From NCBI GenBank assembly GCA_043719805.1, contig JAYSTI010000015.1, forward strand, positions 4,881-68,880: a stretch of 64,000 nt of DNA, read 5' to 3'. The notes under the pieces are model-generated. The model saw only the letters and a program-made list of their open reading frames with translations, did not search any database and was not told the DNA's origin. The stretch comes from Candidatus Lloydbacteria bacterium. GTDB lineage: Bacteria; Patescibacteriota; Minisyncoccia; Phycocordibacterales; UBA6899. Of this stretch, positions 30,035-55,000 are shown one piece after another (position 1 is the stretch's first letter; every line of letters starts with the position of its first letter). Position numbers and translations under genes: made by a program.

Positions 30035-31201
30035 GTGAATTATTACAACCCACTCATGCAATTTGTTCGTTCGAGAACATTGAGCGCCGCAATCATCATT
30101 GCGATGGTTGGTTTGGTGTTTCCGGCATTTCAACTCTTCACTCCAACCTACGCAGCACAGCTAAGCCTCGTAAGTGCCACGGCGTCTACGTCAGCCCCGT
30201 CGGTTTCGACGAACTACATGGTGAGGTTTACGAACATAAACACAATAGGCCAGGCAGTGACGGCATCAACATCGAGGATAACGTTTGACCCTCTTGGGAA
30301 CTCATTCGATTTTTCTTCACTCGTCGTCGGCGATATTACAGTCTCGGGTCCTCAGGTGACGACAAGAACCGGAATAGGTGGCTGCACGGGGCCGACAACA
30401 AATGAAATGTATCCGTCATCAATTGGCGTAAATCCCGACTATATTGAGCTTTCTACTTGCGTTGGCGACACTGTTCCCGCAGGTGCCATTTTGGTTAATA
30501 TGGCAAATGCTCATGTCGTGAATCCTGCAGCCGTTGGCTCGTATATTGTGCGCATTAACGGCACAATGACCGATTCCGCCGACACCCGTGTCGCAACCAT
30601 AAACTCCGTGACAATGACAGGAATCGTCGGCACCAATCTAACTTTCACGGTTGCCACTGTCGCCTCGAGTTCACTGGTCAACGGGGATACAACCTCAACG
30701 TCGAGTTCGGCGACGGCAATTGGGTTTGGCACACTTTCGGTTGGTACCTCGTCTATCGCCGCACAGGACATCACTGTTCAGACAAATGCATTAAATGGTT
30801 TCAGTGTAACGGTAACCGAAAACCAAGACCTCACTTCTTCCAACGGTGCGACTATCAACGCGTTTAGAGACGGCAATCCAGCACCAGGTGGCATCCTCGC
30901 TGCCCCCGCAGCTTGGGGTGCCGCCCCGTTGGGTACGATTGGTAATGCGAACTCCTACGGTCACATGGGGGTTACCTCTGAGGATTCAACGTTACCGGCC
31001 GATGACTTCGGCTCCGCATTCTACGGAGGACTCACCTCGACCTCAACGCGCACGGTGCTCTATCACACTGGTCCCGCAGACGCATCAACTGCAAACATCG
31101 GAGCTACTCGTGTGGGATTCCGTGTGCAGATTACCTCACTCCAGGAAGCCGGAACTGACTACACGAATCAGATCCGCTACGTCTGCACCCCGATTTTTTA
31201 G
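30035..31201 (+). CDS. Paralogue family B, copy 2
   Basis: A 388-aa ORF. The motifs AQLSLVSATASTSAPSVSTNYMVRFTN and the terminal ...QIRYVCTPIF are present. The 3' ~350 nt are about 85% identical in nucleotide sequence to copy 1. Confidence 0.65.
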   Translation: MNYYNPLMQFVRSRTLSAAIIIAMVGLVFPAFQLFTPTYAAQLSLVSATASTSAPSVSTNYMVRFTNINTIGQAVTASTSRITFDPLGNSFDFSSLVVGDITVSGPQVTTRTGIGGCTGPTTNEMYPSSIGVNPDYIELSTCVGDTVPAGAILVNMANAHVVNPAAVGSYIVRINGTMTDSADTRVATINSVTMTGIVGTNLTFTVATVASSSLVNGDTTSTSSSATAIGFGTLSVGTSSIAAQDITVQTNALNGFSVTVTENQDLTSSNGATINAFRDGNPAPGGILAAPAAWGAAPLGTIGNANSYGHMGVTSEDSTLPADDFGSAFYGGLTSTSTRTVLYHTGPADASTANIGATRVGFRVQITSLQEAGTDYTNQIRYVCTPIF

Positions 31202-34500: not shown

Positions 34501-34672
34501 GGAAACAGAGAACAACACAAAAACATCCCATTCGCGAATAACAGAAGCGTTCTGAATATGGACTTCCCACAGGGACATATGCAACATCAGAACATTAGTG
34601 CTTCACTTTCTCCCGCTGCAAATTCTCCAAACTTGCAAGCAGTTATTCGTTATCAAAATAAAAGTTCACACT

Positions 34673-35839
34673 ATGGACTACACAAACGCATTTCGTTCTT
34701 TAATTCGCATGAGGTGGCTCGCCACGACGCTTGTCGTCGCGACCTTCTCTTGGGCACTCGGCCTACCATTTCTTTTTAATACGGCATCGGCATCTCAGCT
34801 CTTGCTGGTGAGTGCAACTGCATCATCATCTGCACCACTGGTCTCTGGAAATTACATTGTGCGATATACGAACATAAACACAATTGGTCAGGCCGTGACG
34901 GCATCAACAACAAGGATCACCTTTGACCCTGGGAGTAATTCATTCGATTTTTCGACGCTCGTCGTCGGCGATGTAACCATCTCAGGTCCTCAGGTGACGG
35001 GGAGAGCTAATATCGGTGCTTGCTCTGCACCGACCACAAATGAAATGTACCCCTCATCAATTGGCGTGAATCCAGACTATATTGAACTTACTACTTGTGT
35101 TGGTGATACCGTTGTCGCCGGTGCGCTTACTGTGAGTGTCGTAAATTCACATATAACAAATCCATCAGGTGTTGGTTCCTATGTGGTGCGTGTCGGCGGC
35201 ACAATGGCGGATTCCGCAGACACACGCGTTGCCATCATTAGCTCAGTGACCATGACCGCAATTGTTGATACCAACCTTACCTTTACAATTGCGGGTGTTG
35301 CCTCTAGTTCGCTCGTGAACGGCGACACAACCTCGACTTCGACCTCCGCAATAGCTATCGGGTTTGGCATCATCTCCGTTGGTACGTCGTCCATTGCGGC
35401 GCAGGACATTACCGTTGCTACAAATGCCTTCAATGGTTTTTCGGTGACCATCACTCAAAACCAAGACCTTCTTTCCGCGAATGGTGCAAACATCAACGCG
35501 TTTAAGGACGGCAATCCCGCACCAGGTGGTGTTCTCGATGCCCCCGTAGCCTGGACGACGCCACTAGGAACACTCGGAGTGAATAATGCATATGGTCACA
35601 TGGGTGTGACATCAGAGGATTCATCATTACCGACAGGTGACGCATTTGGCACTTCACTCTACGGTGGACTCACGTCTACGTCGACACGCACGGTCCTCTA
35701 TCACACTGCGGTGGCAGACGGTACGACTGCGCACATTGGTGCAACCCGCGTGGGATACCGCGTGCAGGTCTCGGCACTTCAGGAAGCAGCCGTCGACTAC
35801 AACAACGTTATCACCTACGTTTGTACCCCAATCTTTTAA
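34673..35839 (+). CDS. Paralogue family B, copy 3
   Basis: The start is at MDYTNAFRS, inside track ORF 34598..35839. The motifs SQLLLVSATASSSAPLVSGNYIVRYTN and the terminal ...TYVCTPIF are present. Confidence 0.65.
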   Translation: MDYTNAFRSLIRMRWLATTLVVATFSWALGLPFLFNTASASQLLLVSATASSSAPLVSGNYIVRYTNINTIGQAVTASTTRITFDPGSNSFDFSTLVVGDVTISGPQVTGRANIGACSAPTTNEMYPSSIGVNPDYIELTTCVGDTVVAGALTVSVVNSHITNPSGVGSYVVRVGGTMADSADTRVAIISSVTMTAIVDTNLTFTIAGVASSSLVNGDTTSTSTSAIAIGFGIISVGTSSIAAQDITVATNAFNGFSVTITQNQDLLSANGANINAFKDGNPAPGGVLDAPVAWTTPLGTLGVNNAYGHMGVTSEDSSLPTGDAFGTSLYGGLTSTSTRTVLYHTAVADGTTAHIGATRVGYRVQVSALQEAAVDYNNVITYVCTPIF

Positions 35840-36239
35840 AAGCACAATAGAAGCCGCCTCGCCTTGCCGTGGGGCCACTGTGATTTGGTCATACATTAGA
35901 ATATGTCTTGCCTTCTACAATCCCCATGCGTCGTATCTGCGTTCATCTGATACGCTCCACGGCAATGCAATCTAGTGTGCGTATCTTGGGTGTTCGGGCT
36001 ACCCGGAAGTGCTCGAATGCAGTCCATAGTGAAAAATGCACCAATCAATTTGATTGGTGCATTTTTTTGTCGTTTTACTGCACCGTTGCCTTTCCAAATG
36101 TGATTTATAAGATCACACTTTCCACATAGCCAATGATTCGGTACAATGGTAACTAGTCTCACTGAGGTGAGTTGTGGAAAGGAAAGAATTTATACATAGC
36201 TTATACGCCTCGCCGTGCGGGAGAGGTCCAAAATTTTTT

Positions 36240-37316
36240 ATGTCGAGATCCAATATGATTTTAAAGAGTGATTTGGTCCTTGCCGCGTTTGTCGGCTCTG
36301 CGATGCTCATCGCACCACTTTCGGCACTCGCGCAAAATAAAGTGAGTTTCAATCTTTCCCCTACGACTATTGAAGATAAAGTTGAGCCGGGCACGGAGCA
36401 CTCGTACTCGGTGCGTATCGAAAATCGTGGCGATCAGGGGACAACTCTTTATCCTGTCGCACGCAACATTTCAACAATCGGAGCCGACCATCAGCCCGTC
36501 TACATGGAAGGAGCTGACGTAAATGCGACGGAGCTTGCATCATGGATAACATACGATGAGTCAGTGCTTGATGTTCCTGCAGGCAAGGGGGCAGTGCTCC
36601 ATTTCACCATCAAATTTCCCGCCGATGCACGTCCCGGTTCGCACCTCGCGGGTTTATTTTTGACACAGAAACCGCCCGACAACCTCAAGGAAGGTTCTGC
36701 GGTGGGTTTCGATATTGGTGCAATACTCCATTTTCAAATGAAAGGGGATATCGTTGAGGACACACGCATGAGGGGATTCCGTACCGACAAGCTTATCTAT
36801 GGTTCTGCGAACGTCGTCTTTAGTGTGGAGGCGGAGAATAAGGGCAACACGCTTTCGCGCCCCCAAGGACTGATTGATATTACGGACATGTTCGGAAAGA
36901 AAGTCGAGTCACTTCCAGTGAATGAGACAGCTTACGTCATCTCACCGAACGCCACCGGAAAGTACGACGTCAACTGGAGTCCGGACGGGTTTGTCATCGG
37001 TCACTTTGAAGCGGTTGTGGCGCTCGCGGTACCTCTCGTTGACGGCGGAAATCAAACCATTTCATCGGTGACTTCGTTCTGGATACTCCCAATGAATATC
37101 ATTGGCCCGGTCTTGGGGGGTCTCCTCACGTTCATTCTCGTACTCTATTTCATGATTCGCCTCTACGTTAAACGACAGTTAGCGGGAATGGTGGGTGGAC
37201 GCGGAAGCTCGGCTGCACGTGGCGCACAGGGCATTTCACGACTTGCTGCGGTGGCCATCGGACTCTTGTTTGCGATTATTGTGGGTCTACTCATCCTCTT
37301 CTTCTACTTTGGCTAG
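36240..37316 (+). CDS. Paralogue family A, copy 3 (DUF916/DUF3324-like anchored surface protein)
   Basis: The signal is MSRSNMILKSDLVLAAFVGSAMLIAPLSALA. It has a beta-domain, a TM (IIGPVLGGLLTFILVLYFMI) and a second C-terminal TM. Confidence 0.55.
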   Translation: MSRSNMILKSDLVLAAFVGSAMLIAPLSALAQNKVSFNLSPTTIEDKVEPGTEHSYSVRIENRGDQGTTLYPVARNISTIGADHQPVYMEGADVNATELASWITYDESVLDVPAGKGAVLHFTIKFPADARPGSHLAGLFLTQKPPDNLKEGSAVGFDIGAILHFQMKGDIVEDTRMRGFRTDKLIYGSANVVFSVEAENKGNTLSRPQGLIDITDMFGKKVESLPVNETAYVISPNATGKYDVNWSPDGFVIGHFEAVVALAVPLVDGGNQTISSVTSFWILPMNIIGPVLGGLLTFILVLYFMIRLYVKRQLAGMVGGRGSSAARGAQGISRLAAVAIGLLFAIIVGLLILFFYFG

Positions 37317-38749: not shown

Positions 38750-39184
38750 ATGGCCATTTGGAAGGATAAGGTGGGCAAAAAGGCAACAATTCAATATGCA
38801 GCGATACTTATCGTGGGCTTTGCCGTGCTTACGCAGCTCACTTTTGACGGATTCGCGCCGATAAAAAATATTGCACTTCAGGCGACGGAAAATATTGCCG
38901 GAGTAATTGGTATTGCGGGATCAGTTGCACCTAATGAATATAATGACCTCGCCGCACAGATTGACCAGAAAAATGAAGAGCTCACGCTTCGCGAGCAAGC
39001 ATTGGCGGTCCGAGAGGAAGCGCTTTTCTCGGGGAATGACCGCATTACCCTCGACGTACTTTTCGGTATCACGGGGCTCCTTTTACTGCTCATTTCGCTC
39101 AATTTTTACTACGATTGGAGGCGCGGTCCTTCGGTTGATTATGTTGGACCGTCTCATCGGGACGAAATGACAACTCGACTGTAA
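38750..39184 (+). CDS. Hypothetical membrane protein with a coiled-coil segment
   Basis: A 144-aa ORF with two hydrophobic helices flanking a helical charged region. Confidence 0.4.
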   Translation: MAIWKDKVGKKATIQYAAILIVGFAVLTQLTFDGFAPIKNIALQATENIAGVIGIAGSVAPNEYNDLAAQIDQKNEELTLREQALAVREEALFSGNDRITLDVLFGITGLLLLLISLNFYYDWRRGPSVDYVGPSHRDEMTTRL

Positions 39185-39192
39185 CAATTACA

Positions 39193-40134
39193 ATGCACGA
39201 ACGAACAAACATTACAGCCACGCCGGTCAGGTTGACCATCCGGAGAGAAGGTCGTGCGCAATACGCACCCCCGCTCCCGCAACCACCACCGAAGAAAAAG
39301 CGCGGAGGAGGTTTTTGGAAAGGGTCGCTCATCGTCATCGGGGCGATACTGCTCACTACGCTTGCGAGTAAGGCGAGCGATTCCCTTAAGATAAGTGACG
39401 CGCTTTTGCTCGCCGGAACAGGGAAATCGACTGAGGTGTTACGTTGCCCAAAGGAGATGGTGTATGTCCCCACATCTCTGGGTGGATTCTGTATTGACCG
39501 TTATGAGGTGACGACGAGTGTGACCTGCCCGCGCACGAGTCCGTCGAGTGAAATGCAGACAAGGGAGAATCTTGCGGTTGCGACCTGTGTCCCCGAGTCG
39601 ACGAAGGGGATGTATCCGTGGGTAAACGCATCATACGCTCAGGCGATGGCGCTCTGTGCGCGAGTGGGGAAAAGGCTACCTTCTCCCGGAGAGTGGTATC
39701 GTGCAGCGCTCGGTACTCCCGATACGATAGGCGACGTGAAGGCTGGGTGTGTCCTTGGTCGCTCTGGTATGAGTCAGGGAGAAAAAGCCGGAGTGCACGA
39801 AGAGTGTGTTTCCTCGTTTGGTTCCTACGATATGGTGGGAAACGTCTGGGAATGGGTAGATGCGGATGTTGTGGACGGGGTCTACGGTGACCGCACGCTT
39901 CCGCCTGAGGGGTACATCACCGAAGCAGATGCGGACGGAGTCCCTTCGCAAACAGCCACGACTTCTTCGCCGGTATTTGGCGAAGACTATTTCTACGCTG
40001 ATTCGACCGGAGTGCGCGGAATGTTTCGCGGAGGGTTTTGGAATTTGACCGACAGGGCGGGAATTTTTACCATCAACGCCACCATCCAGACCTCGTTCGC
40101 CGGCTCTGCCGTCGGGTTTCGTTGTGTAAAATAA
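39193..40134 (+). CDS. Membrane-anchored protein of the formylglycine-generating-enzyme family (FGE-sulfatase / SUMF1-like domain)
   Basis: The motifs FCIDRYEVT, GKRLPSPGEWYRAALG, MVGNVWEWV and FRGGFW are present. There is an N-terminal TM. Confidence 0.65.
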   Translation: MHERTNITATPVRLTIRREGRAQYAPPLPQPPPKKKRGGGFWKGSLIVIGAILLTTLASKASDSLKISDALLLAGTGKSTEVLRCPKEMVYVPTSLGGFCIDRYEVTTSVTCPRTSPSSEMQTRENLAVATCVPESTKGMYPWVNASYAQAMALCARVGKRLPSPGEWYRAALGTPDTIGDVKAGCVLGRSGMSQGEKAGVHEECVSSFGSYDMVGNVWEWVDADVVDGVYGDRTLPPEGYITEADADGVPSQTATTSSPVFGEDYFYADSTGVRGMFRGGFWNLTDRAGIFTINATIQTSFAGSAVGFRCVK

Positions 40135-40171: not shown

Positions 40172-41920
40172 ATGACACAACAGAGAGTACATCATTCAGC
40201 GATACTGCAAAAAAAGGACCCGGCACCGATGGCCGGCATTCTTCTTTTTTTAACCTTGCTTATTCCGTTGTCATTTGTGCATGCTGGTACGATTTCGTTT
40301 GTGAGTGACACCGTCTCGACATCGGCCCCGAGTGCAACGACGACGTCGCACACAATTCAGTTCACCGTGGCGACGGCAATACCCCCAGGCGGGCATATCG
40401 TGGTGACCCCCGAGGGCTTCACCATTCCCGTTGCACTCAGTTTTGCGGACGTTGACCTTGCTGTCGCGACATTGCCGGGCGCGTTTACTAATCGCATACT
40501 TGCGGCTGTGCCCAGTGTGACTGATGTCGGGGTGACGGTTACATCAGGACTAACGGGGCAGATACTGTTTACACTTAGTTCGGGTGCAGGAATATCTGCA
40601 GGAGACACCGTAAAAATTTCCATAGGGGATGTTGCCACATTTGGCGGTGTGGGGACGCAATTTATTGAGAGCCCTGGTACTGTCGGTTCGCGCCACGTGC
40701 GCTTTTTGACGACGAATGCCGTCAATGCGAATCTTGATTTCGGGTCCACGATTGTGGCCATCATCGCTCCGGTGGGAATCACCGCTTCGTTGCCGGTATT
40801 TGAGCCAACTCGTACGAATGCACTTCCTTCTGGGCTCTTCCCTGGGAGTACGCGGAACATCTGGGTGTCGCTTAACACCGATATTCCCGCAACGTGTCGC
40901 TACGCTACCTCAAGTGGCGTGCTCTATACAAACATGCTGGGAAGCACCGCCTTTACCGCTGCAAATGGTGGCTTGCTGCACTATCGCAACGAGGCGGTCG
41001 CCACAAATACTGTGTATAGTTTTTATGTGCGCTGTCAGACGCCTTCATTGATAGTGAACTCCAGCGACCTACTTATCCGTTTTGAAATAGGAGTAGAGGC
41101 GGGTGCGGCAACCGCGACGCCACCGCTTCCGCCTCCACCACCTCCGGGCGGGGGAGGCATTTCGGGGCCGGGCGGAGGAGGAGGGCTTTACTTGAACGGT
41201 GGAGACGTAACCCTCGAGGGTAGGGCGGCACCGGGCGCGGCAATGGTTTTCCTTAAGGACGGCGTGATTGCGCGCGAGACGACCGTGTCTCAAGTAGGAG
41301 ATTTTTCAGAAAAGTTCACGAACCTCCAGCGCGGTACCTATACATGGGGTGTATATATCCGAGATACGAACGGGAGGCTTTCCTCGACATATTCGTCGAC
41401 TATTTACCTCATCGCAAGAACAAACAACATCATTGCACCTGTATACATTTCTCCGACGATAATCGCTGCGACGACAACGGTTGGCCTTGGGGATAAGATA
41501 AAATTGAGCGGATACGCAATACCGCTAACTCCGGTTCAGGTGATAATGAATGCACAAGGAAATGCACTTTCGGGAAAGATAGTCACCGGCACGACGACGG
41601 CAAATGGGAACGGCTCGTGGAGTTTGGAACTATCCTCCGATGGATTAGCGAAGGGGACATACGAGGCGAAGGCGCTCTCAAAACTTCTGAATAAAGATCA
41701 GAGTCTCTTGAGTCCAATACTCTACATCGGTATGGGCGTTTCTCCGACTCCCGATTTTACGAATCGTTCAGACTTGAATAAAGATAAAAAGGTGAATCTC
41801 ATCGACTTTTCGATATTGTTGTTTAATTGGAAAAGTTCGGACCCGGTGTCGGACATCAATCAGGACGGGACGGTGAATTTGGTGGACTTTTCTATCATGC
41901 TCGCCAATTGGACCGGGTAA
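40172..41920 (+). CDS. Secreted protein with a C-terminal type-I dockerin module. Its N-terminal post-signal segment is shared with family B.
   Basis: Two Ca-binding dockerin repeats are present: DLNKDKKVNLIDFSILLFNW and DINQDGTVNLVDFSIMLANW. The N-terminal segment TISFVSDTVSTSAPSATTTSHTIQFT follows the signal peptide. Confidence 0.65.
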   Translation: MTQQRVHHSAILQKKDPAPMAGILLFLTLLIPLSFVHAGTISFVSDTVSTSAPSATTTSHTIQFTVATAIPPGGHIVVTPEGFTIPVALSFADVDLAVATLPGAFTNRILAAVPSVTDVGVTVTSGLTGQILFTLSSGAGISAGDTVKISIGDVATFGGVGTQFIESPGTVGSRHVRFLTTNAVNANLDFGSTIVAIIAPVGITASLPVFEPTRTNALPSGLFPGSTRNIWVSLNTDIPATCRYATSSGVLYTNMLGSTAFTAANGGLLHYRNEAVATNTVYSFYVRCQTPSLIVNSSDLLIRFEIGVEAGAATATPPLPPPPPPGGGGISGPGGGGGLYLNGGDVTLEGRAAPGAAMVFLKDGVIARETTVSQVGDFSEKFTNLQRGTYTWGVYIRDTNGRLSSTYSSTIYLIARTNNIIAPVYISPTIIAATTTVGLGDKIKLSGYAIPLTPVQVIMNAQGNALSGKIVTGTTTANGNGSWSLELSSDGLAKGTYEAKALSKLLNKDQSLLSPILYIGMGVSPTPDFTNRSDLNKDKKVNLIDFSILLFNWKSSDPVSDINQDGTVNLVDFSIMLANWTG

Positions 41921-42479
41921 ATACCGCTCGGGTTTATGGCTTTTGAAAGGCACACAGTCGGCCCCTCCGAGGTAGCACACCCTTTGAGCAATTTCTAAAA
42001 AAGCTCAAAAGGTCTTGCGCAATGGGCCACACCCATCGTTCACCTGCCGGGGCCGCTCTCGCTCACCACGGAGAGTACTTTTTGCTTTCAAATTCACTTC
42101 GCTCATTAGAATACGAAGTCGCCCGGTAGTTGCCACATCAGAACGAGAATTAGGCCAACCGTCCTGCGAGGGGCCCTAAGAAGTGGTAAATCCTCGTTGT
42201 TGAGGAAGTGCTACATTCTGTATTCTCTAAAAAAATCAATACCTTGCTTCCAGGTTCGTTTCTTACGCTAAGTGAGTATGCGCAATTTTTTGTAGAGGAG
42301 AAAATTCGTGGTGTTTTTTGACATTCCTTTGCAATGCGCTAGTCGCGTAAAGCTACACTTTATGGTTGGTTTTGTTTTCGAAAAACACAAAAAATATTTT
42401 CCTCGACAATGCGTTGATGTGTGTTAGTTTTAGCAAGGATTACGTACGTTGAAAAAACGTTCACCACAAGGAGAATTGA

Positions 42480-43922
42480 GTGAAAACGAGAGACGATGCG
42501 ATCGATCCCGTGCACTATTTTGGGAAGCTGCTCGGCCTTGACTCGGCCGGCATGACGGCGCTCGTCAAACGCGCACTTTTTGGTGCGGAAGACGGCGAGC
42601 TCTTTCTGCAGCGTTCGGAAAGCGAAAGTGTTTCGCTCAACGATGGCCGGGTCCAGTCGCCGTCACGAAGTGTGGACCAAGGATTTGGTCTGCGCCGCGT
42701 GAACGGGGAGTCGGTGCTTTACGCACACGGCAATACGATCTCGACTCGGGCTATCGTTCGCGCGGGCAAAGAGCTCCGCGAAATCGCAACGGCGAAGCAG
42801 TCGTACGTGATGCGGGAGGTGCTTCCGCAACCGATGGCTCGTTATGCCGGAACGCTCACCCCACTGTCGCTTGCGGCTCGGGTAAAGGTCCTGCGTGCGA
42901 TCGACCGTTACGCGCGAAAAGACAAAGTGGTGACCAACGTCAGTGCTTTCATTGCGAGTGGACTCACCTATGTCCTCATCGTGCGTGCGGATGGAACTGT
43001 TGCGAGCGATGTTCGCCCGATGACAAAACTGTTTGTCTCGGTCCAGTGCGCCCTCGGTGAGAAGCGTGAGAGCGGAGATGGAAGTATCGCCGGACGATAC
43101 GATTATTCGCGCCTCATCGCGCCGAATGTGTGGATGCCGGAAGTTGATCTTGCGATACACAACGCAAAGGAAACGCTGCGTGCGGGACCATGTCCGTCGG
43201 GCATCATGCCTGTCGTCTTGGGTCCGGGTTGGGCCGGAGTATTGCTTCATGAAGCTATCGGGCACGGACTGGAAGCTGACTGTGTGTGGCGGAAGACAAC
43301 CGTCTTCGCGGACCTCGTCGGAAAACGCGTTGCAAGCGAACTTGTGACGGTTGTCGACGATGGCACGTTGCAAGACGAACGTGGCTCACTCACCATCGAT
43401 GATGAGGGGACACCGACCGAGCGCACCGTGCTTATCAAAGACGGTATTTTGGTCGGCTTCATGCACGACAGACAGAGTGCGCGTTTGCTCAATATGCGTG
43501 CGACCGGCAGCGGTCGTCGCGAATCGTACGAACATCGCACGCAGGTGCGTATGCGCAACACACTCATGGAGAGTGGCGTGACTCCACCCGAAGACATCAT
43601 CGCCGCAACAAAGCACGGTTTGTATATGCCTTCGTTCAGCGGCGGACAAGTTGACCCGGTAACGGGGCAATTCGTGTTCGGCTGTGAGCTTGCGTACAAG
43701 ATTGAAGACGGCAAACTGACTACGCCGGTCGTTGGTGCAACGCTTATCGGCAATTGCACTACGGTGCTCACGTTCGTTGACCTCGTCGGAAATGACAGTA
43801 AGTTGGGCGGCGCGGGAACGTGCGGCAAGGGAGGGCAAAGTGTGCCTGTTGGCATCGGCCAACCGACACTGCGGCTTTCCGGCGGAGTGACCGTCGGCGG
43901 AACTGAAACAGCAGCGGAATAA
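42480..43922 (+). CDS. tldD: TldD metalloprotease (TldD/PmbA family)
   Basis: The metal-binding motif HEAIGHGLE is present. The ORF is 480 aa with a GTG start. Confidence 0.8.
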   Translation: MKTRDDAIDPVHYFGKLLGLDSAGMTALVKRALFGAEDGELFLQRSESESVSLNDGRVQSPSRSVDQGFGLRRVNGESVLYAHGNTISTRAIVRAGKELREIATAKQSYVMREVLPQPMARYAGTLTPLSLAARVKVLRAIDRYARKDKVVTNVSAFIASGLTYVLIVRADGTVASDVRPMTKLFVSVQCALGEKRESGDGSIAGRYDYSRLIAPNVWMPEVDLAIHNAKETLRAGPCPSGIMPVVLGPGWAGVLLHEAIGHGLEADCVWRKTTVFADLVGKRVASELVTVVDDGTLQDERGSLTIDDEGTPTERTVLIKDGILVGFMHDRQSARLLNMRATGSGRRESYEHRTQVRMRNTLMESGVTPPEDIIAATKHGLYMPSFSGGQVDPVTGQFVFGCELAYKIEDGKLTTPVVGATLIGNCTTVLTFVDLVGNDSKLGGAGTCGKGGQSVPVGIGQPTLRLSGGVTVGGTETAAE

Positions 43923-43933
43923 AGGAGACGACC

Positions 43934-45277
43934 ATGAATCAAAAAGAAATGCTGCGTGTCGGCAGGCAACTGCTGCGTCACGCGAAGTCCGCCGGCGCGA
44001 CTGATGCCGTTGTGTCACTCGACACGTCGATAGAGCGTGGCGTCACTGTTCGTGACGGAGTGCAAGAGGATGTCACGTTTTCGAGCAGTGCCGGTTTCAC
44101 TGTAACGGCGATTGTCGGGGACAAGCGCGGACATGCGCAAAGCTCCTCATTCGCGAGCGAGGACCTTGCTCGTACCGCAAAAGAGGCGGTACTGTCTGCG
44201 CATCTCGTAAGTGCAAACCCGCACCAGCGGCTTGCGCGACCTGACGAATGGCCGTGTGCGATGGAGGAGCTGCCCGCCAAAATGGCGCTCCTCGATTGCT
44301 TGGACCGCAGTCCGGAGCCGACATTGAAAGAACTCGTTGGACAGGCGATCGTACTTGATCGCATTGCGCGGAAGTTCCCGGGAATTTCCCGCAGCGAAGG
44401 GACCAGTTTTGGTTTCCAGTCTGATGTTTCGGTACAACTTTTGTCGAACGGTTTCGCAATCGTCTCTCCGTCGACACAGTATTCAAAGAGCACGAGTGTT
44501 ATTGCGGAAAAAGCCGGTGAGATGAAATCCGGTTCGCATTGGCACGTGGCGGCTCATCGTGCAGACCTGATGGAAGATGAGGAGTGTGCCTACCGTGCAG
44601 GAGACTATGCGGTGCGACAGCTCGGTGCGCATTCGATCAAAACGGAAGCGATGCCGGTCATCTTTGATAAGCGGGTTTCTCCGCGACTGCTTGAGGCGCT
44701 CTTTGCCGCCATCAGCGGTGAGTGCGTATATCAGAAAGAGACCTTCCTACTCGACCATCTCGGTTCACACATCTTTCGTGATGATGTGCACATTGTCGAG
44801 CGGCCGCATATGCCGCGCCGACTTCAGTCAGAGCTCTATGACGACGACTGCGTCAAGACCTCGCCGTGGACCTTGGTCGACGAAGGGTTGCTCAAGATGT
44901 GGGCAACATCCATCGAATCGGCGTCGAAGCTCGGCACGAGCGGCTCGACGGGACATGCATCGGGTGCACTTAATTTGCTCCTGTGTCCTTCGATGAGTTC
45001 GTTGAACACAATGATTCGGAAGATTGATCGCGGGTTTCTTGTTACCGATATCATGGGCGACGGAACGAATGTTGCGACCGGAGCATATTCGGTCGGAGCG
45101 GAAGGTTTCCTCATCGAGCGCGGCGAGATTGTCTGTGCAGTGAACAAGGTGACCATTGCAGGGAACTTGCTCAAAATGTTCCGGCACATGATTCCCGCTG
45201 ATGATTGTTCCGATAACACTTATGGTGCGAATGCCCCGAGCTGCCTCATCGACGAGATGATGGTCGCAGGGGAATAG
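43934..45277 (+). CDS. pmbA: PmbA/TldE protease (TldD/PmbA family partner)
   Basis: A 447-aa ORF adjacent to tldD. It has the family-typical Gly-rich C-terminal region (DIMGDGTNVATGAYSVGAEGFLIERGE). Confidence 0.75.
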   Translation: MNQKEMLRVGRQLLRHAKSAGATDAVVSLDTSIERGVTVRDGVQEDVTFSSSAGFTVTAIVGDKRGHAQSSSFASEDLARTAKEAVLSAHLVSANPHQRLARPDEWPCAMEELPAKMALLDCLDRSPEPTLKELVGQAIVLDRIARKFPGISRSEGTSFGFQSDVSVQLLSNGFAIVSPSTQYSKSTSVIAEKAGEMKSGSHWHVAAHRADLMEDEECAYRAGDYAVRQLGAHSIKTEAMPVIFDKRVSPRLLEALFAAISGECVYQKETFLLDHLGSHIFRDDVHIVERPHMPRRLQSELYDDDCVKTSPWTLVDEGLLKMWATSIESASKLGTSGSTGHASGALNLLLCPSMSSLNTMIRKIDRGFLVTDIMGDGTNVATGAYSVGAEGFLIERGEIVCAVNKVTIAGNLLKMFRHMIPADDCSDNTYGANAPSCLIDEMMVAGE

Positions 45278-45289
45278 GTAGTTGTGCGA

Positions 45290-45318
45290 AAGGCGCTGTA
45301 TCCACAGCGCCTTTTTTG
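45290..45318 (+). terminator. Rho-independent terminator after pmbA
   Basis: The hairpin is ggcgctg-tatcca-cagcgcc, followed by ttttttg. Confidence 0.65.
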
Positions 45319-45715
45319 TACACACAAATCTGTTTCTTCACAGGGTGAAGATCAAAGCATTTACCTAATAAATAGCGAGGGTAAAACATTTTGGGAGCCC
45401 TCGCAGGCGCAAACTTTCGAGAGCGAGGGCATTCTCCTTTTGAAATGGCCCTGCGCAAGCCCGACGGGGCGAGCAAAGCAAAAATTCAGCAGAATTTTAT
45501 GCGTGCCTTTCAAAAGGAGAATGCCCCAGCGAGCGTTCTCCCCTTGTTGTTCACAGTTTCATTGCGCAAGATATACAATTTCACGTATAATGTATTCAAC
45601 TCTACCGTGATGAAAGTTTGGGCTAAAACATTTTTTCAGAAAAAATGTTCGTCCGAACAAATTTAGGAAATTTGTTTTAGGAGGCGGGTTACTAATTAAT
45701 TGTACTTTTGATTAT

Positions 45716-46228
45716 ATGAGTTCTTTTTTACAAAAACTCAAAGGAAAGGGAATTGGAGTATCAGACGAACACACTGTTTCGACGACGAATCTTCCCGCAA
45801 AATCAGACATTCCCGCAGGCGTAACGCAACTTCCGGTTGACGTTAAGCAAGGTGACACGGAGATCACCATATACGCACAAGTACCGGGGACCGAGATCAA
45901 GGATCTCGATGTGTCTATCGAGGGGGACAATGACGTCATCACCATCCAGGGTACATCACGTCGCCCCGAGGACCTTATGCCGCATGCAGCAGAGGGCAAC
46001 GTGTCTATCAATCAGGGCGTGCAGCACGAAGAAGAGCATGACGCGTTCACGCTTGAGGAGTGTGTTTGGGGGAAATTTTTCAGACAGATTATTCTTCCTC
46101 AAGAAGTCGACGCCGCCGCCGCACAGGCAAAGGTGAAGGACGGCGTCCTCGTGCTTCATTTGCCGCTCAAGGGTCACACCTCAAATAAGTTGCGCATGCA
46201 TGTCGAACGCGTAGATTCTGCTGCATAG
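45716..46228 (+). CDS. Hsp20 / alpha-crystallin-family small heat-shock protein
   Basis: It has the ACD beta-sandwich pattern (ITIYAQVPG...DLDVSIEGDNDVITIQG...GKFFRQIILP...KDGVLVLHLP). Confidence 0.8.
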   Translation: MSSFLQKLKGKGIGVSDEHTVSTTNLPAKSDIPAGVTQLPVDVKQGDTEITIYAQVPGTEIKDLDVSIEGDNDVITIQGTSRRPEDLMPHAAEGNVSINQGVQHEEEHDAFTLEECVWGKFFRQIILPQEVDAAAAQAKVKDGVLVLHLPLKGHTSNKLRMHVERVDSAA

Positions 46229-46257
46229 GTGCGTTCATGTTTGCGTAACTCATTCTT

Positions 46258-47757
46258 ATGCGCCGCTCACTCCTCACACAATCAATAGGATTTTTTCTCA
46301 GTGTACTAGTGGTCATCGGTGCACCGATGGTGGTTTTTGCGCAACAGGCGGGAGACGTACAGACCGGAGGAGCAGTGCTTTCGTTCAATCCTCCCTCCGG
46401 GATTATCGGAGTAGGGAAGACGCTGACGGTGACCATTGCCGTCGAGTCTCCTGCACCATTCAATTCAGCAAACGCACTCGTCAGTTTTGATAAAAATATT
46501 CTGACCATGGACGGCGTTTCGAAGGCAAGCTCCGCATTTTCGTTTTGGCCCGAAGAGCCGACTATCTCCAATGCGAATGGAACGATGAATTTTGGCGGTG
46601 GCGGCACCGTGGGACTTGTTGGGAAGAAGACCATTCTGACAATCACTTTGAAGGGAGTCAAAGAGGGAAAAAGCGATGTGGTGTTTACCACCGGCTCTGT
46701 TTTGGCCAATGACGGAAAAGGTACGGATATTTTAAGTACTAAAATTATTGCCAACTACACGGTGTCCGCGACGGCCGCAAATAATACGCACCCTCCGATA
46801 CCGGGCCTCCCTGATACCGGACTATTGGGTCCAAAGCCCGAATTGCCGGATGTTACTTCAACGTCGCATCCCGACGAAAATCTTTATTACAATGCACCCA
46901 AAGGGCGATTTTTATGGGAATTACCTCCTGACGTATTGATTGTGCGCATGGACCTCGACAAGAGTGCCAAGACCGACCCGAAGACAAGTTATGACCCGGC
47001 GATAAACGAAAAAGAATTCGACCAGCTCACCGACGGGGTGATGTATTTTCATTTGAAATATCAAAATGATGCAGGTTGGGGGCCGATTTTGCACAGGAAG
47101 ATAATGGTGGACCGAACTGCACCGCCTCCTTTTACGCTTGACATTACGGTGCCTGCGTCTACGACGGATGTAATAGTGAAATTTTCCGCAACGGATACGC
47201 TCTCGGGAATCGACCGCTACGAGGCTGTCGTCGATGCGGGGGATGCCATAAAAATAGCGTTGAGTGCCGTCAAGGATGATACGTACAAGCTTTCCGGACA
47301 AAGCCCCGGCGAGCACACACTCACCCTTAAGGCGTATGACAAAGCAGGGAATTACACTCCTGCTGAAGGAAAGTTTCTGATTGAAGGAGAGCTTCCTTCT
47401 GATGCCTCAAAGCTCGTTGTTGACGATACACCGAAGCCGACGAACTGGTCGCTCATTGCGAATATCTTTCTCGTCGCGCTTGTTGCATTCCTCATCGGCT
47501 ATATGTGGTACGAAAGAAAATCGTTTCGTAAAGAGAAGTATGTGACAAAGCGAGAAGCAGATGAGCTGCGCGATAGCCTGGGAAATATTTTTGCAGCACT
47601 TCGTGAGGAGATAGGGGAGCAGACCGGTGCACTTTTCCAAAAACCTAATCCGTCTGCGCAGGACAGGGAAGTCATGGAAAAAATCAATGAGGCGATTGAT
47701 CTTTCTGAAGAATTGATATCCAAGGAGGCGGAGGACGTCCGTAAACTCCTCATGTAA
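46258..47757 (+). CDS. Membrane-anchored protein with an N-terminal cohesin-like domain, an Ig-like domain, a TM helix and a cytoplasmic coiled-coil tail
   Basis: The signal peptide is present. The cohesin-like pattern is LSFNPPSG..VGKTLTVTIAVES..LVSFDKNILTMDGVS..MNFGGG..KTILTITLKGVKEGKSDVVF. The TM is WSLIANIFLVALVAFLIGYMWY. Confidence 0.55.
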   Translation: MRRSLLTQSIGFFLSVLVVIGAPMVVFAQQAGDVQTGGAVLSFNPPSGIIGVGKTLTVTIAVESPAPFNSANALVSFDKNILTMDGVSKASSAFSFWPEEPTISNANGTMNFGGGGTVGLVGKKTILTITLKGVKEGKSDVVFTTGSVLANDGKGTDILSTKIIANYTVSATAANNTHPPIPGLPDTGLLGPKPELPDVTSTSHPDENLYYNAPKGRFLWELPPDVLIVRMDLDKSAKTDPKTSYDPAINEKEFDQLTDGVMYFHLKYQNDAGWGPILHRKIMVDRTAPPPFTLDITVPASTTDVIVKFSATDTLSGIDRYEAVVDAGDAIKIALSAVKDDTYKLSGQSPGEHTLTLKAYDKAGNYTPAEGKFLIEGELPSDASKLVVDDTPKPTNWSLIANIFLVALVAFLIGYMWYERKSFRKEKYVTKREADELRDSLGNIFAALREEIGEQTGALFQKPNPSAQDREVMEKINEAIDLSEELISKEAEDVRKLLM

Positions 47758-48276
47758 AAACTTCCAAATTTGGCACACTACAATTTTTTCATCAACGAAA
47801 GGTTTGGGGGACGTACCCCATGTACGCCCCCGCAAACACTTTCATCTTGAAAAAATTGCAATGCGACTGATTTTTCTTAGCGGTAGCCGCTTTAGAAAAA
47901 CGAAGTGCCCTTGTGGTATATCCAAATTATGAAAGTTTTTGTAAGTCCGCTCGAACATCGCCACCTTGTCGCCTCGCAGCTTATCCCAAATATCACGCTA
48001 GCTTTCAGCGCCAAAATATTAGTTTTAAAATTTCGGCTTGCTTGCATATTTCTATTTTGCCTCGCACTACATCTCAATTTTGTAAATAATTTAATGCGTA
48101 GGTTTTTCAAAAAGATATAAATACTCGCTTGAGAGTGTTTTGATTCGACCCTTCTGCTACGGTGGTGCAACGATGATTTATATAATGTGTACGGTCGTAC
48201 ACATTATATAAAATTGAGAAAGAAGTCGAAAAAGAAAATCGCCCCAGGATGGAGGGCGATTGATACTTGGTTGGTC

Positions 48277-49090: not shown

Positions 49091-52000
49091 ATGCACAATC
49101 AATTTTCATTCATTTTGAGACGCCTGAATATCAGTTTTTCCGTGCGCACGCGCCTCGTTTTTGGGGCACTCGCACTCGTCGTAACGCTGTGGGCATTCAC
49201 ACAATTTGTGCTCGCAGAAAAGGAAGCGAATGTGTATATTTTTCCGAGTGCGATGGGCAGTGACGGCTGGGAGAATGATGAGGCATCACTAATGCAAGAC
49301 CTTTCTCCTGATGCGGAGCTTGTCGATTTTACGCGTGACAATTCTTCGCAGGTATTTTTTGGAAAACCCGTTTCGACTTCTACGGTCGACACGTCCGTCA
49401 TCGAGACGCCTGCTCCTGCGCCGGCAGAGGCCCCCATTGTTGAAGTAACAACAACACCTCAATCCGATGCTCCCGCATCGGTGACTGAAACACTTCCGTC
49501 TTTTCCAAATCCATTTGTTCCGTCGGGAATAAATATTGAGACGCCTGTCGTTGCACCCATGCCTACAGTCGAAGAGACTGCGCCAAGTGGTATTCAGTCA
49601 AAAATTGAACAGACGTTACGAGATTTTTTGACGCGTGTGTGGAGTCCCCACTCAGCAATCGCATTGGAAGTGCCAACGACAACGAGTGAGATAGTGAGTG
49701 ACGCACCGAACCTCTCTCTGGTAACGGACTTATTTATTTCAAGTGGTGTCGGTTCGCTCGAAGTGCCTCCGCTTGTTGAGGGCTCGAGTGCAAGCACCGC
49801 ATCGACATCCACATTCAGCGAAATTATTATCAGTGACATCGTACCTACGGGGGACACTGCGACGACGGCCGACGCTTCTCCTCTGCCAATTTTGCCCAGC
49901 GTTGAAAGTGCAGACCCGTACACCGTTGCACTTTGTACAACGCTCGGAAAAACGTGCCACGTCATGGAGTTCGACGGGTTTGGTCTAGGCGGCGCTCTCG
50001 ACAAAAATCCTCTTCTTGGCGCGACGCTGGAAATTTCGCTTGCGGGGTCCGGCGCATTCACCACCGGCGCATATGACCGCGTTATTGTGCGCGCGTACCA
50101 TGCGGGGCATTGGCAGTTTCTTGGGTCGACGGAGTTGCGTGGAGAAGTGTCAAACGGTAAGCACGGCGGATACCGGAAATACGAACTTCCGGATATCGCA
50201 GAATGGCAAGACCTTTCGGACCTCAAGATTGTCGTCGAGTACGACCGCACGAGTGATGCGGATGCATCTGCATACGTCGACGGCATCTGGATTAATGCGC
50301 GTTACGCGAATGACGCACTTGCCGATGCTTCCGCTGAAGATGTTGCGCTCTCAGGAATGAATATTCGCAGTACGCTTCTGGCAAAGGACGCTGAAGCAAG
50401 AAAAGCACGACGCGACAGATTGATGCTTCCCGAAGGCAAAGAACTCTCCTTCGTCAACAGACAAGATTATGCAGGCGCAACGCTTTCCGTCAAAACCGAT
50501 GATGCGGTCTATCACGCACTTGGGGATGGACGTACGTATTTCAATGTGACGAACGAGAGTGCTGACCCGCAGGTGGTGCGCGTGCAGTTCCACTTTCCCG
50601 TTGAGGGTGCGAACGTGAAGTCGCTTTCTCGGTTTGCGCACAACGTTCCGTACAAAGTGGGGCAATTGAAATACAATGACATCGGATATTTTTGTGATGC
50701 AGGATGGGAGTCGGGAACTTCTCCCTCGACATTTCGTTGTGCGGTAAACGAAGAAGTGCGCTCGTGTGACCGATTGAACGATGACAAAACAAATTGTATT
50801 ACCGTCGGTGCGCGCGTCGGACTTACCGAGGGGACGGAATACCGTGACGGATGGATGGAGGCAGCACTTCGCCCGGGCTCGATTATCGATGATGCGGGAC
50901 TCTTTGCAAAGGCGGTCGATCTCCTGTTGAACCAGCTTCCACCTGACATCATGCCGTCTACCGTTCTTCCTGTCGCACATCTCGGTGACTCCGTGCTCCT
51001 TCAGCCCGGGCAGACGATGTATTTCCGTGCGGACATTACTGTTCCCTTGAACGGTCGTGGAGACTTTTTTGTGGAGGCCGCGGCACAGTCCGGAGCATAC
51101 GGATTGGTCCGTTCTGGTTGGGACGGTTCGTGGAATCATCGTGCGCATATTTCCATCGACAATGAAAACATCACTACAGACGGCACATTTGCAATTCCCA
51201 TCTCACTTGATAATGCACCGTCCGGTTTTTGGGAACACGTTTCGCGGGACGGAAGCGACATTCGATTTGTCGATGAGGCCGCTGCCGCCGAACTCCCATA
51301 CTGGCTTCAAGCTTTTGATACCGAGAAAAAGACTGGGCTAGTTTGGGTTCGTGCGAACGGGAAGGACGGAGGTGCCTCTACGACGATTGCGATGTATTAC
51401 GATTTTGCGACGACCACTTCGCGTTCGGACCCTGCGGCACCATTCCGCACCACAGAACCTGAACCGCGCGGAATAATATTTGGCGGGAGTCAGTCAGACA
51501 TGACACTCCACGTCATTGCACTCGATGACAATGTGCGCGTTCTCGCATCGGACAAACCCGAGGTTGTTTTGAAGAAGGGAGAGAGTGCACTTTTCGACGG
51601 CATGAAACCGGGAAGCGTAATTTCTGCTGACGGTCCTATCGCCGCATCGGTCGAGGCGCCGGGTGCGAATGCAATTTATGTTCCGACGGGATATGCGGGT
51701 GACGAGTTTATTATTCCCGGGATAGGAGGGGAGCGCGAGCTTTCGCTCGGTGTGACCGCACCGAACGTTACACATGCGGGGCTTGGATTCACAAACGGCC
51801 CGGAAATACTCGATCCGGTACGAGGCTCCATCGTTGGGCGCCCAATTGCTCTGGATGAAAGCGTCACACTCACCGGTTCGGGCGACATCATCCCCGTACT
51901 CGGAAGCAACAGCCAATCATTTCCTACGCCGATTTATCCTGCAACTACCGAGGAGCTTTTCGGATTCCAAGTGGGGAGGAGTGTCGTCGGCGTAGCGTGG

Positions 52001-55000
52001 GACGCAACGGCATTTACGGTGGCATGTGGAAATGGTGCACGTCAGGAAGTTGACGGAAGACGAAAGGGGATGACCGTGAAGCTTGATCACTGCGGTGCAG
52101 GCGAGGGACTTCTCTCTGATGCAGTACGTGTTATGGGTGCAAGCAATCCGATAGGCATCGTCGGCGAGGTCAACGAAAATCTCACCGTCGCCGTGCCACG
52201 CAGTGAGTTTGCTTCATCGTATCTTTCACCTTACGATGCGACGGGCGTCTCGATACTTTGTGCCGGAGAAGACGGTGCCATGGATATCGGCGTCTTCGAC
52301 CCTCAGGGCGGGATACTTGCCTCTTCGACTTGCGCAGGTGCGGGCGTGTATCCGGGCAGAACATTCATTGCTCCGGTGAAAGATATTTTTGCGGCAGGGT
52401 TTTCGGTGCGGACGATATCTTCTCTGTCGCCGCAGACATTTCTCGCAGCAATCGTTCCGAGCGTGAAGGCAAGTGTGGACGCCAAGGTGTCACACGCACT
52501 TCTCCCGCTCATTTCGCCTCAGCTTTCTCGCGTATCGGGAGCACGTCATCCCGGGGCGCAGATCGGCGAAGAAGAGTTCGTGGTTCCCGGAGAGCATCGT
52601 CGACTTGATGTTGACGCAGACGGTCGTGATAAAGATCATTTTGGTAGATTGCTTTCAAAGGATCGCGAATTTTCTATTCACCAATTACCTGCGTTCGTTT
52701 TTCAGTACAAGCGTCAGGCAAACGGATTGTTGCAGAGTGTCCGCGACGTGTTCGGGGTGAAGCCGTTCAGCGTTTCTCGCGTCGTGCTGAAGCATGCAAC
52801 CATGGGTGATATCCCCGTCAATTATGACATCAGCTACGGCAACAACAATGAATGGTCAGTTGCGCTGAAAGACATGCATGGTGCGGTGCGTCCGGGAAAA
52901 TATACGCTGTACGTTGAGATCGCGGAGGGCGGTGAGGTGTATGTTGACGAGTACGATTTTTATTGGGGGGTTCTTGCAATCAATTTCAATAAAACTGTTT
53001 TTACGGAGGGTGAGAAGGTTGCAATTTCGGTCGGCGCACTTTCAAACAACGGCAACACTATTTGTGATGCGAATGTGAAATTGTGGATTACGGACACAGT
53101 CGGCGTTGAGGATGAGGTTTTGATGACACCATCCGGACTTTGTAATGGGAACAACGTCGTCGACGTGCCGGATTATTCGGCCATGTACGCACTTCCAAAC
53201 GCGACGGGAACATATAAGGTGAAGCTCGTGCGCTTTGATCAGTACGAAAATGTTGCGAGCCAAGTAAGCGACAGTTTCGAAGTGAGGGAGAGTGTTCCGT
53301 ATTCCGTGGAGCGTGATGGTCCAACGCGCATCTATCCGCTTGCACATTACCCGATGAAGATTCGCATTCATGCAAATGAGGCATTCGAGGGGAATATCGT
53401 GGAGCGCATCCCGGGGGATTTCACTGTTATCGACAGAGGTAATGCAAATTTAGAGTGGGGCGATGCTGAGCATACGTTTATCACTGCGACATGGCCGGTG
53501 AAGCTTTCTGCGGGCGGCTCCATTGACCTGCAATATACATTTGACGCACCGGACCGCTCGCCGTTCCTTTTCTTGCTCGGGCCACTCGAGATGACGAGCA
53601 CGAGCGGTGGGACGAATTTCTCCGAGTTGAGACAGTGGCAGATTGCGTCCGATGCGGCAGGGAAGATGATTTTGTATTGGGATGGAGGCGCAGCTCCCTC
53701 GGGGTGGACCTGTGTTTCATGTTTGGGAAGCGACCCTTTTTCGTTTCGCATTGCCATGGGTTCATCAACATATGGCGGGCAAGGGGGTGCAACAACGACG
53801 ACACATACGGTTTCCGGAACAATAAATACCGCGACATCGACGGCTGTTGCGGAAAGTACCCAGAACAATTTGCTCCTTGCGGATAATTTGCACGGACATT
53901 CGGTCACTCCCAATGTTGTCGCCGCAACAAATACACCGCTTTCCAAGACACTACGCGTCATTCAGTCGACCTCGGCGGGGGAGCCACCATCATTGCCGGT
54001 GGGAGCTATTGCAATGTTTGATATTGCCTCCACCTCACTTCCGTTGACGTGGTATCGCTATGCTCCGATGGATGGGTATTACGCAATGGCTTCGACATCG
54101 GTCGGCTCGACCACTGGTGCCAATACTCATGCACATACGGTGACCGGTTCAACGTCCCCCGCAACCGGCAATGGATATCGTTCGCGTACTCCGACTATCT
54201 CCCCTCAGCCCGCACTACTCAGCCACGTCCACCGGTTTTCAACCTCAACAAACCCCACGGTAAACAATGAGCCGCCATACGTTGAGGTGCTTTATGCTCG
54301 ACTCACTGTGGCAACGACAACCTTACAGAATTTCAATGGCATGATAACGATGTGGGACAATACACCACCTGCAGGGTGGACAAATCAGTCAGACGCGGGG
54401 CAAGTCTTTGATGGAAAGTTTTTGAAGGCATCGACAACATATAGCGGCACGGGGGGTGGTACGACGCACACGCACATCGATATGAGTGGAGGAGCTGTCC
54501 AGTCGCCTGATGCGCAGGCAAATGGACGCACGCCGACTTCCCCCGTTGTTGTACAATCAGCACCGGGAGACCATTCACACGCTTTCAATCTCAGCGGCTA
54601 TTCGACTGATACGAGTTTGCCTAATTACATCGAAGTAATTTTTGCAAAGCGCTTCAGCGGAATTACTGTTTACGCACAAGACAATCATCTTTGGTATGAC
54701 AACGTAAATGCTAATACCCCGACAGACATCTGGCCTCCGGGAGGATCAACCCTTGGCGAGGGGGACGCTATTACTGTTTCAACGCAGCCGCCAATTCCGG
54801 GAAATGTGCTTCGATTGCGCATGACGTTCAACGTTACGAATGCGACAGCAACAGCATTGTCGCAGGCGTTCAAGCTGCAGTATGTTGCAGCGGACAGCGG
54901 TACCTGCGCATCGGCACTCATGTGGACCGACGTCGGGGCTATCGGCGCAGGTGGGGCACTTTGGCGGGGATACAACAATGCGGGAGTTACTGACGGAGCA

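Follow-up and report, generated by a model that had tools for sequence, protein, structure and literature searches.

The cohesin and dockerin proteins of the locus

The DNA considered here, a stretch of 64,000 nt from a Candidatus Lloydbacteria bacterium (contig JAYSTI010000015.1, positions 4,881 to 68,880; hereafter the window), encodes on its forward strand a secreted protein that ends in a dockerin module and, further downstream, a membrane-anchored protein that carries a cohesin module near its N-terminus. An earlier note, made from the sequence alone, had read these two genes as a minimal cellulosome-like surface-display system with a textbook double-repeat type I dockerin. The analysis reported below leads us to regard the two proteins as, probably, a non-cellulosomal cohesin–dockerin anchoring pair that is part of a surface gene cluster conserved across Paceibacteria. 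The features of the two genes are as follows, with positions within the proteins in amino acids (aa).

40172..41920, + strand: gene of the secreted dockerin-tailed protein (582 aa; open reading frame (ORF) confirmed exactly)
aa 1-38 of this protein: signal peptide (…SFVHA/GT)
aa 42-197 and 214-306: two beta domains, together the "dN" region (AlphaFold2)
aa 310-341: disordered Pro/Gly linker (AlphaFold2)
aa 344-425 and 442-521: immunoglobulin (Ig)-like domains (AlphaFold2)
41744..41917, + strand: dockerin module, aa ~525-582 (Pfam, loop pattern, alignment, AlphaFold2)
41771-41806: calcium loop 1 (D534-D545), then helix 543-551 (AlphaFold2)
41852-41887: calcium loop 2 (D561-D572), then helix 570-578 (AlphaFold2)
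46258..47757, + strand: gene of the membrane-anchored cohesin protein (499 aa; ORF confirmed exactly)
aa 1-28 of this protein: signal peptide (…VVFA/QQ)
46372..46767, + strand: cohesin module, aa 39-170 (Pfam, AlphaFold2, Foldseek)
aa 173-189: linker of 17 residues
aa 199-297 and 305-375: Ig/fibronectin type III (FN3)-like domains
47446..47511, + strand: transmembrane helix, aa 397-418 (W397-Y418)
47512..47754, + strand: cytoplasmic helical hairpin, aa 419-499, about 80 aa (AlphaFold2, alignment)

The dockerin is a real module of a compact variant, because its Pfam match lies above the gathering threshold, its calcium positions are conserved and a helix is predicted after each loop. The Pfam profile Dockerin_1 (PF00404) matched the ORF with 25.9 bits against a gathering score of 22.9 (E-value 1.1e-5). 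When all six frames of the window were searched for a calcium-loop pattern with Asp/Asn at positions 1, 3, 5, 9 and 12 (D-x-[NDS]-x-[DNS]-x-x-[hydrophobic]-[NDTSE]-x-x-D-[hydrophobic]), just two matches were obtained, both at the extreme C-terminus of this ORF, namely DLNKDKKVNLID (nt 41771) and DINQDGTVNLVD (nt 41852), with a spacing of 27 residues. Across 29 aligned homologs, the most distant at 36% identity, residues D534, N536, D538, N542, D545, D561 and D572 were invariant and N563 and D565 nearly so, and the helix motif DFSI(L/M)LxNW following the loops was conserved as strongly as the calcium positions themselves; the protein ends in a conserved NWTG. That is, the module consists of a duplicated segment, each copy of which comprises a 12-residue EF-hand-like calcium loop and a helix. 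Most of the 70 homologs of the protein carry a precomputed PF00404 match.

The double repeat described in the earlier note therefore stood, whereas the designation as a textbook type I dockerin had to be given up. In addition to the 27-residue spacing, Pfam aligned the module as two separate half-length stretches (profile positions 25-52 of 57), AlphaFold2 predicted no middle helix between the repeats, and the residues at loop positions 10-11 are hydrophobic (L-I and L-V). Type I dockerins of Clostridium thermocellum have a Ser/Thr recognition pair at these two positions. The canonical cellulosomal type I layout, with a single full-length match, three helices and the Ser/Thr pair, was thus not found in this module.

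The remainder of the 582-aa protein was modelled by AlphaFold2 together with the dockerin (predicted local distance difference test (pLDDT) score 82.7). No catalytic domain was found by Pfam or NCBIfam, the protein having Ig-like domains besides the dockerin; Pfam matches to Big_6 and Big_13 stayed below gathering, and no NCBIfam model reached its cutoff (dockerin_GC scored 20.5 bits, below the required 29). In a Foldseek comparison with the PDB the best match was the Haloferax S-layer protein csg (7ptp_A, E-value 6e-12), and the Bacillus anthracis S-layer protein Sap was also retrieved (9g93_A, 6hhu_A). Since the template modelling (TM) scores of these S-layer matches were just 0.11-0.15, and the other matches were strings of Ig-like domains, the fold comparison describes a multi-Ig surface protein and nothing further.

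The cohesin is likewise real, at the level of both profile and fold. Residues 52-162 matched Pfam Cohesin (PF00963) with 24.7 bits against a gathering score of 24.1, a marginal score that is backed by the homologs, as 35 of the 38 family members match the same profile (best E-value 3.8e-9). The Pfam searches proposed in the earlier note thus bore out both modules. AlphaFold2, run on the 38-sequence alignment, gave a mean pLDDT of 83, with about 90 over the beta-sandwich of residues 39-170, and predicted in order a signal-peptide helix, the N-terminal beta-sandwich, a linker, two further beta-sandwiches, a helix of about 64 residues that opens with the transmembrane segment (residues 397-460) and a second helix (residues 467-498). 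Against the PDB, the top Foldseek match was the cohesin–FN3 module of Clostridium perfringens GH84C (2w1n, E-value 3e-11), and type I cohesins were matched with TM-scores of 0.73 (6kgd_A, the single-domain CohA2 of Clostridium acetobutylicum; root-mean-square deviation 3.0 Å over 156 columns) and 0.68 (4ums, ScaB).

The sequence ERKSFRKEK directly after the transmembrane helix forms a positive-inside flank, from which the tail is taken to be cytoplasmic. Neither an S-layer homology (SLH) domain nor an LPXTG motif was found in the cohesin protein, its anchor being the single C-terminal transmembrane helix, so that the membrane anchoring followed by a helical cytoplasmic tail, as proposed earlier, was recovered by alignment and AlphaFold2. 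Pfam and AlphaFold2 revealed one cohesin module and no carbohydrate-binding module (CBM). In the family alignment, the transmembrane helix and the cytoplasmic tail make up the best-conserved stretch of the whole protein. The conserved pattern of the tail reads KREADELRD..GNIFAALREE..EQ…KPNPSA.DREV…DLSEELISKE.EDVRKLL. Judged from its conservation, the cytoplasmic hairpin suggests an intracellular partner or oligomerisation.

Conservation of the locus across Paceibacteria

Full-length homologs of the dockerin and cohesin proteins were found just in bacteria within the candidate phyla radiation (CPR) that belong to the Parcubacteria/Paceibacteria group. The nearest named record is again a Candidatus Lloydbacteria, with 81% and 73% identity, respectively (locus tags A2845_05010 and A2845_05030). 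In these relatives the two genes recur together with two more genes, which in the window are the following.

45716..46228, + strand: HSP20/alpha-crystallin small heat-shock protein (170 aa, without signal peptide; Pfam E-value 6e-13)
49091..64000, + strand, running off the window: 5′ part of the gene of a giant surface protein (at least 4,969 codons)
within the giant protein: N-terminal transmembrane segment or signal anchor; DUF2341 domain at aa 720-785; Ig domain at aa 2349-2432

The gene order dockerin protein, HSP20, cohesin protein with transmembrane helix, giant protein is shared by related loci L001, L002, L005 and L007, down to about 35% identity; in the divergent loci (36-44% identity) the giant protein has 5,863-6,297 aa and carries DUF2341, and in locus L003 the genes of this cassette abut or overlap by 4 nt. 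A census was then made of 80 loci from GTDB species representatives, which were scanned with hidden Markov models (HMMs) of each module. A locus was called type I when the HSP20 gene lies directly upstream of the gene for the cohesin protein with transmembrane helix, and the linkage to a dockerin gene, required to be on the same strand, was counted among loci whose upstream DNA extends over at least 6 kb. The protein combining cohesin and tail was found in 79 of the 80 loci. The HSP20 gene is directly upstream, often abutting, in 60 of these 79, which links a small heat-shock protein gene to surface-protein genes, and a giant-protein homolog follows downstream in 47 of the 52 type I loci that have enough downstream DNA. 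A dockerin gene was present upstream in 33 of 51 loci overall and in 25 of 42 type I loci. The distance between dockerin and cohesin genes in type I loci ranges from 388 to 4066 nt, so that mostly hsp20 alone lies between them.

Where HSP20 is missing, a dockerin gene was found upstream in 11 of the 13 informative loci. These loci mostly have a second architecture (type II), made up of the dockerin protein, a cohesin protein without transmembrane helix and a cohesin protein with such a helix, and without a giant gene. The conserved linkage in two locus architectures supports a functional pairing, here a putative one based on gene order, between the dockerin and cohesin proteins. The family dockerin HMM matched no further gene in type I loci, and a single dockerin and a single cohesin are present in the window itself. 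The conserved cohesin positions are retained even in loci where no dockerin gene lies nearby, which would fit a partner encoded elsewhere in those genomes.

Small adaptor-scaffoldin-like proteins of 259-288 aa, in which a match to the family cohesin HMM is combined with a divergent dockerin (DIDGDGxVTIxDISRF…DFNGDGxMTFRDFGIIL), were seen at L079:5084-5860 and L086:12356-13219; their Pfam support is weak, with a dockerin score of 19.5 bits in L086 only and no cohesin match.

The giant protein

The 4,969 residues of the giant protein encoded in the window contain DUF2341 and one Ig domain as the only domains found; in an independent assembly (L088) the protein is 6,242 aa long. When its first 1,200 aa were used in a word-indexed search, 2 proteins were returned, and an exhaustive search of representatives gave full-length homologs. 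Giant homologs of 5.4-7.7 thousand aa occur across Paceibacteria. Seventeen homologs were fetched, 14 of them full-length (5,714-7,696 aa). None of the HMMs for dockerin, cohesin, tail, mid, dN and dM matched these 17 proteins at E ≤ 10, nor were paired calcium loops found in them. The full-length giants share a different C-terminal motif, …KPTSTxPxxDDxYWGIxIPxGTxxxxHxGxNTFxAxxD. The giant protein was accordingly rejected as the carrier of the dockerin for the cohesin, and since the giants have none, the 582-aa protein is the sole dockerin carrier in type I loci.

Gene neighbourhood and the surface-protein island

The genes around the pair, and other elements of the window, are listed here.

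17521..22842: protein of 1,773 aa
22852..24207, 24230..25615 and 36174..37316: three paralogous WxLIP/CscA-like surface proteins with C-terminal transmembrane anchors
28786..29994, 30035..31201 and 34598..35839: three paralogs, 64-70% identical
38750..39184, + strand: small transmembrane/coiled-coil protein, which recurs in related loci
39193..40134, + strand: transmembrane-anchored FGE-sulfatase-like (FGE-sulfatase/EgtB-like) protein (Pfam), 37 nt before the dockerin gene
42480..43922, + strand: tldD (Pfam)
43934..45277, + strand: pmbA (Pfam)

The N-terminal domain of the dockerin protein is common to the three paralogs that start at 28786, 30035 and 34598 (hmmsearch E-values 1.7e-8, 2e-4 and 1e-3, respectively), in agreement with the link to a surface island that the earlier note had drawn from a shared "family-B" N-terminal motif. 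The C-terminal ~190 aa of the same three paralogs correspond to the C-terminal end of the 1,773-aa protein (E-values 1e-9 to 4e-7), which in turn shares a segment of ~190 aa with the giant protein (E-value 5e-26). The pair is therefore situated in a modular surface-protein island of shuffled modules, in which an N-terminal domain, C-termini and a further segment are each common to several proteins. In many related loci, members of the WxLIP/CscA-like family are encoded ahead of the dockerin gene. The FGE-sulfatase-like gene is likewise kept in many loci, in one or two copies; its product might be a modifier of surface proteins.

The tldD and pmbA genes, which lie between the dockerin gene and hsp20, are a lineage-specific insertion outside the conserved cassette. 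The TldD/PmbA pair was found solely in the closest Lloydbacteria relatives (L007, L008 and L088) and is absent from L001-L006 and the other loci. The two proteins were rejected as members of the system, being missing from all but the closest relatives. Further downstream, hsp20 is separated from the cohesin gene by 29 nt, and a short antisense ORF for a membrane protein lies between the cohesin gene and the frame of the giant protein starting at 49091. Nearly all long genes of the window are on the + strand.

A promoter scan of the window yielded no excess over shuffled sequences (13 found and 11.9 expected); sites resembling terminators were in excess (30, compared with 15.8 in shuffles), but they did not mark out clear operon borders. 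A perfect 19-nt inverted repeat with a 62-nt loop is located between pmbA and hsp20 (45427-45445/45508-45526) and a perfect 17-nt palindrome on the 3′ side of the cohesin gene (48177-48212); these elements could be terminators or operators. No tRNA genes and no Rfam families at the gathering threshold were found in the window.

Interpretation and alternatives

Taken together, cohesin and dockerin occur here on separate exported proteins, within one conserved neighbourhood and with no cellulolytic context, as is characteristic of a non-cellulosomal pair. We infer that the two proteins are each other's partners, that they would bind physically in a calcium-dependent manner, and that they would serve a surface coat or attachment to a host. 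In the arrangement proposed, the 582-aa protein would be exported by means of its Sec-type signal peptide, as a string of four beta-sandwich domains with the compact dockerin at its end, and the 499-aa protein would be a type I membrane protein with the cohesin distal from the membrane and the two Ig/FN3-like domains as a stalk. The dockerin, folded around two calcium ions, would plug into the cohesin, and the secreted multi-Ig protein would thereby be held non-covalently at the tip of the stalk above the membrane. Because no enzyme is part of this device, its role would be to display or anchor a protein of the surface coat or of adhesion, and not to break down polysaccharides. HSP20 may serve the 6,242-aa pre-protein as a holdase in the cytoplasm, or may be the partner of the conserved cytoplasmic tail.

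A more far-reaching proposal is that the pair constitutes the anchoring device of the surface coat or attachment apparatus of Paceibacteria, that is, a class-wide system without enzymes in which an S-layer-like multi-Ig protein would be held on a membrane-embedded cohesin stalk with its conserved cytoplasmic tail and a dedicated small heat-shock protein, beside a host-contact fibre of ~6,000 aa. This we put forward tentatively, as possible though on balance unlikely. If true, a surface layer or epibiont attachment structure anchored through cohesin and dockerin would be encountered here for the first time.

Several observations weigh against the two proteins forming an anchoring pair. In the window the dockerin and cohesin genes are 4.3 kb apart, with tldD and pmbA between them, and a promoter-like and a terminator-like site precede hsp20; on this weak evidence the two genes are probably transcribed separately. 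In 17 of the 42 type I loci no dockerin gene is found within at least 6 kb upstream. The full-length family profile of the cohesin protein gave weak cohesin matches among PDB sequences (5aoz_A, E-value 0.096; 5m2o_A, E-value 0.17). Moreover, the tightest linkage of the cohesin gene is with hsp20 and the giant gene, both of which the earlier note had passed over. A one-to-one partnership is not established either, since the dockerin signature is identical in both locus types and both architectures occur in one genome, a few kb apart (L030 and L066, contig CAYTAR010000002.1). Orthogonal dockerins for the two locus types were rejected, the signature being the same. A single dockerin type across the class thus seems to serve one to three cohesin proteins, in place of strictly private pairs.

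The strength of the linkage to hsp20 (60/79) and to the giant gene (47/52 type I loci), compared with that to the dockerin gene (25/42), together with the fact that the cytoplasmic tail is the best-conserved part of the cohesin protein, lends some weight to the idea that both modules are real but that the cohesin protein mainly serves the giant protein and HSP20, for instance as a membrane platform on which the ~6,000-aa fibre is held or assembled by a dockerin-free contact, with the dockerin protein being accessory or docking elsewhere. However, the 14 full-length giants, with neither dockerin, cohesin nor paired calcium loops, carry no known ligand for a cohesin, and type II loci keep the dockerin protein and the cohesin protein with transmembrane helix in the absence of a giant gene and of HSP20. 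We consider such a main function to be rather improbable, and it is in any case compatible with an anchoring pair, as the two are not mutually exclusive. It is distinctly unlikely, in turn, that the dockerin-like tail is a calcium-binding module independent of cohesins, stabilising the protein or binding wall or glycan, that the cohesin-like domain is a spacer or a lectin, and that the two are neighbours by virtue of a common island. Such an explanation could draw on the two Pfam scores, both marginally above gathering in this genome, on an island full of unrelated beta-sandwich surface proteins, and on dockerin-like modules without cohesins in many organisms (Peer et al. 2009, as cited in PMC9012536), but the cohesin assignment is backed by the fold and by 35 of 38 homologs, the two families recur adjacent to each other in two independent architectures at class-level divergence, and the dockerin helices are extremely conserved, as expected of a protein interface.

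It is extremely improbable that the locus encodes a genuine cellulosome in miniature, arranging enzymes of polysaccharide degradation at the cell surface. Nothing but the presence of the two signature modules speaks for it: neither in the dockerin and cohesin proteins nor in the neighbours conserved beside them was a domain of a carbohydrate-active enzyme or a CBM found, and the 64 kb contain a single cohesin and a single dockerin. A cellulosome was therefore rejected for lack of such enzymes and CBMs, with one cohesin and no SLH or sortase (LPXTG) anchor. Of the cellulosome-like system that had been suggested, the docking principle is thus what remains. The non-cellulosomal anchoring pair is accordingly the reading that we prefer and regard as probable.

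The occurrence of such a pair is not surprising in principle, given that non-cellulosomal modules are known to be widespread and that the automatic annotation of the NCBI already labels proteins of close relatives as "cohesin domain-containing" and "dockerin type I domain-containing"; full-text literature searches turned up no account of a locus with cohesin and dockerin from Paceibacteria or the CPR. Among the uncultured bacteria of groundwater, Paceibacteria belong to the most abundant; they are apparently host-dependent, and the build of their surface and their mode of attachment are barely known. An enzyme-free pair would offer a concrete handle on the architecture of the CPR envelope and would be a core surface component used across a whole bacterial class, and a transmembrane helix in place of SLH or sortase widens the known modes of cohesin anchoring.

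Comparison with known systems

Cellulosomal type I pairs, such as CohA2–Doc0917 of C. acetobutylicum (6kgd) or those involving ScaB of Pseudobacteroides cellulosolvens (4ums), are built from the same module families as the present pair, with the similarity in cohesin fold given above (TM-scores 0.73 and 0.68), and their dockerins have the duplicated calcium-loop-plus-helix segment in common with the one described here, in which near-identical repeats would permit a dual binding mode. Unlike them, the present pair is without enzymes or CBM, has one cohesin and a transmembrane helix instead of SLH or sortase anchoring, and has a compact dockerin with hydrophobic loop positions 10-11. The pairing is used outside cellulose degradation in the non-cellulosomal complexes of C. 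perfringens, of which the GH84C cohesin–FN3 module (2w1n), the top fold match, shows the same order of a cohesin followed by FN3/Ig domains. There, however, the modules are found on secreted glycoside hydrolases and toxins, whereas the partners here have no catalytic domain and the cohesin protein is embedded in the membrane. Adjacent genes for a single cohesin and a single dockerin are known from Cellulosilyticum lentocellum, where ClcC and ClcD form a heterodimer in vitro, as demonstrated experimentally (PMC13487519); that pair boosts cellulase activity, whereas ours has no enzyme, is anchored in the membrane and belongs to a larger surface locus that is conserved.

Cohesin and dockerin modules of the non-cellulosomal kind occur widely (Peer et al. 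2009, cited in PMC9012536). In archaea (anaerobic methanotrophic (ANME) archaea, Archaeoglobus), proteins with such modules have been proposed as organisers of surface proteins (PMC9012536). The likeness to Paceibacteria lies in the use of the modules by non-cellulolytic, syntrophic or symbiotic organisms; the archaeal system differs in comprising substrate-binding proteins of ATP-binding cassette (ABC) transporters and multi-cohesin proteins, and no conserved cassette with HSP20 and a giant gene is reported there. A likeness that is architectural only can be drawn to the eukaryotic TMEM132 proteins (PMC6030884), in which a cohesin homologue, tandem Ig-like domains, a single transmembrane helix and a cytoplasmic tail follow each other as they do here, although these proteins are eukaryotic and have no known dockerin partner. 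An essential dockerin-domain protein has been described from a saccharibacterium (PMC10633639). Finally, dockerin-type giant proteins were described in Omnitrophota (bioRxiv 10.1101/2023.11.21.568195), which are likewise ultra-small, host-dependent bacteria with giant surface proteins and dockerin repeats, for which a function in attachment was proposed. In that case, however, the dockerin repeats are located inside the giant protein, whereas in the present locus the giant protein is free of them and the dockerin is carried by a separate protein of 582 aa.

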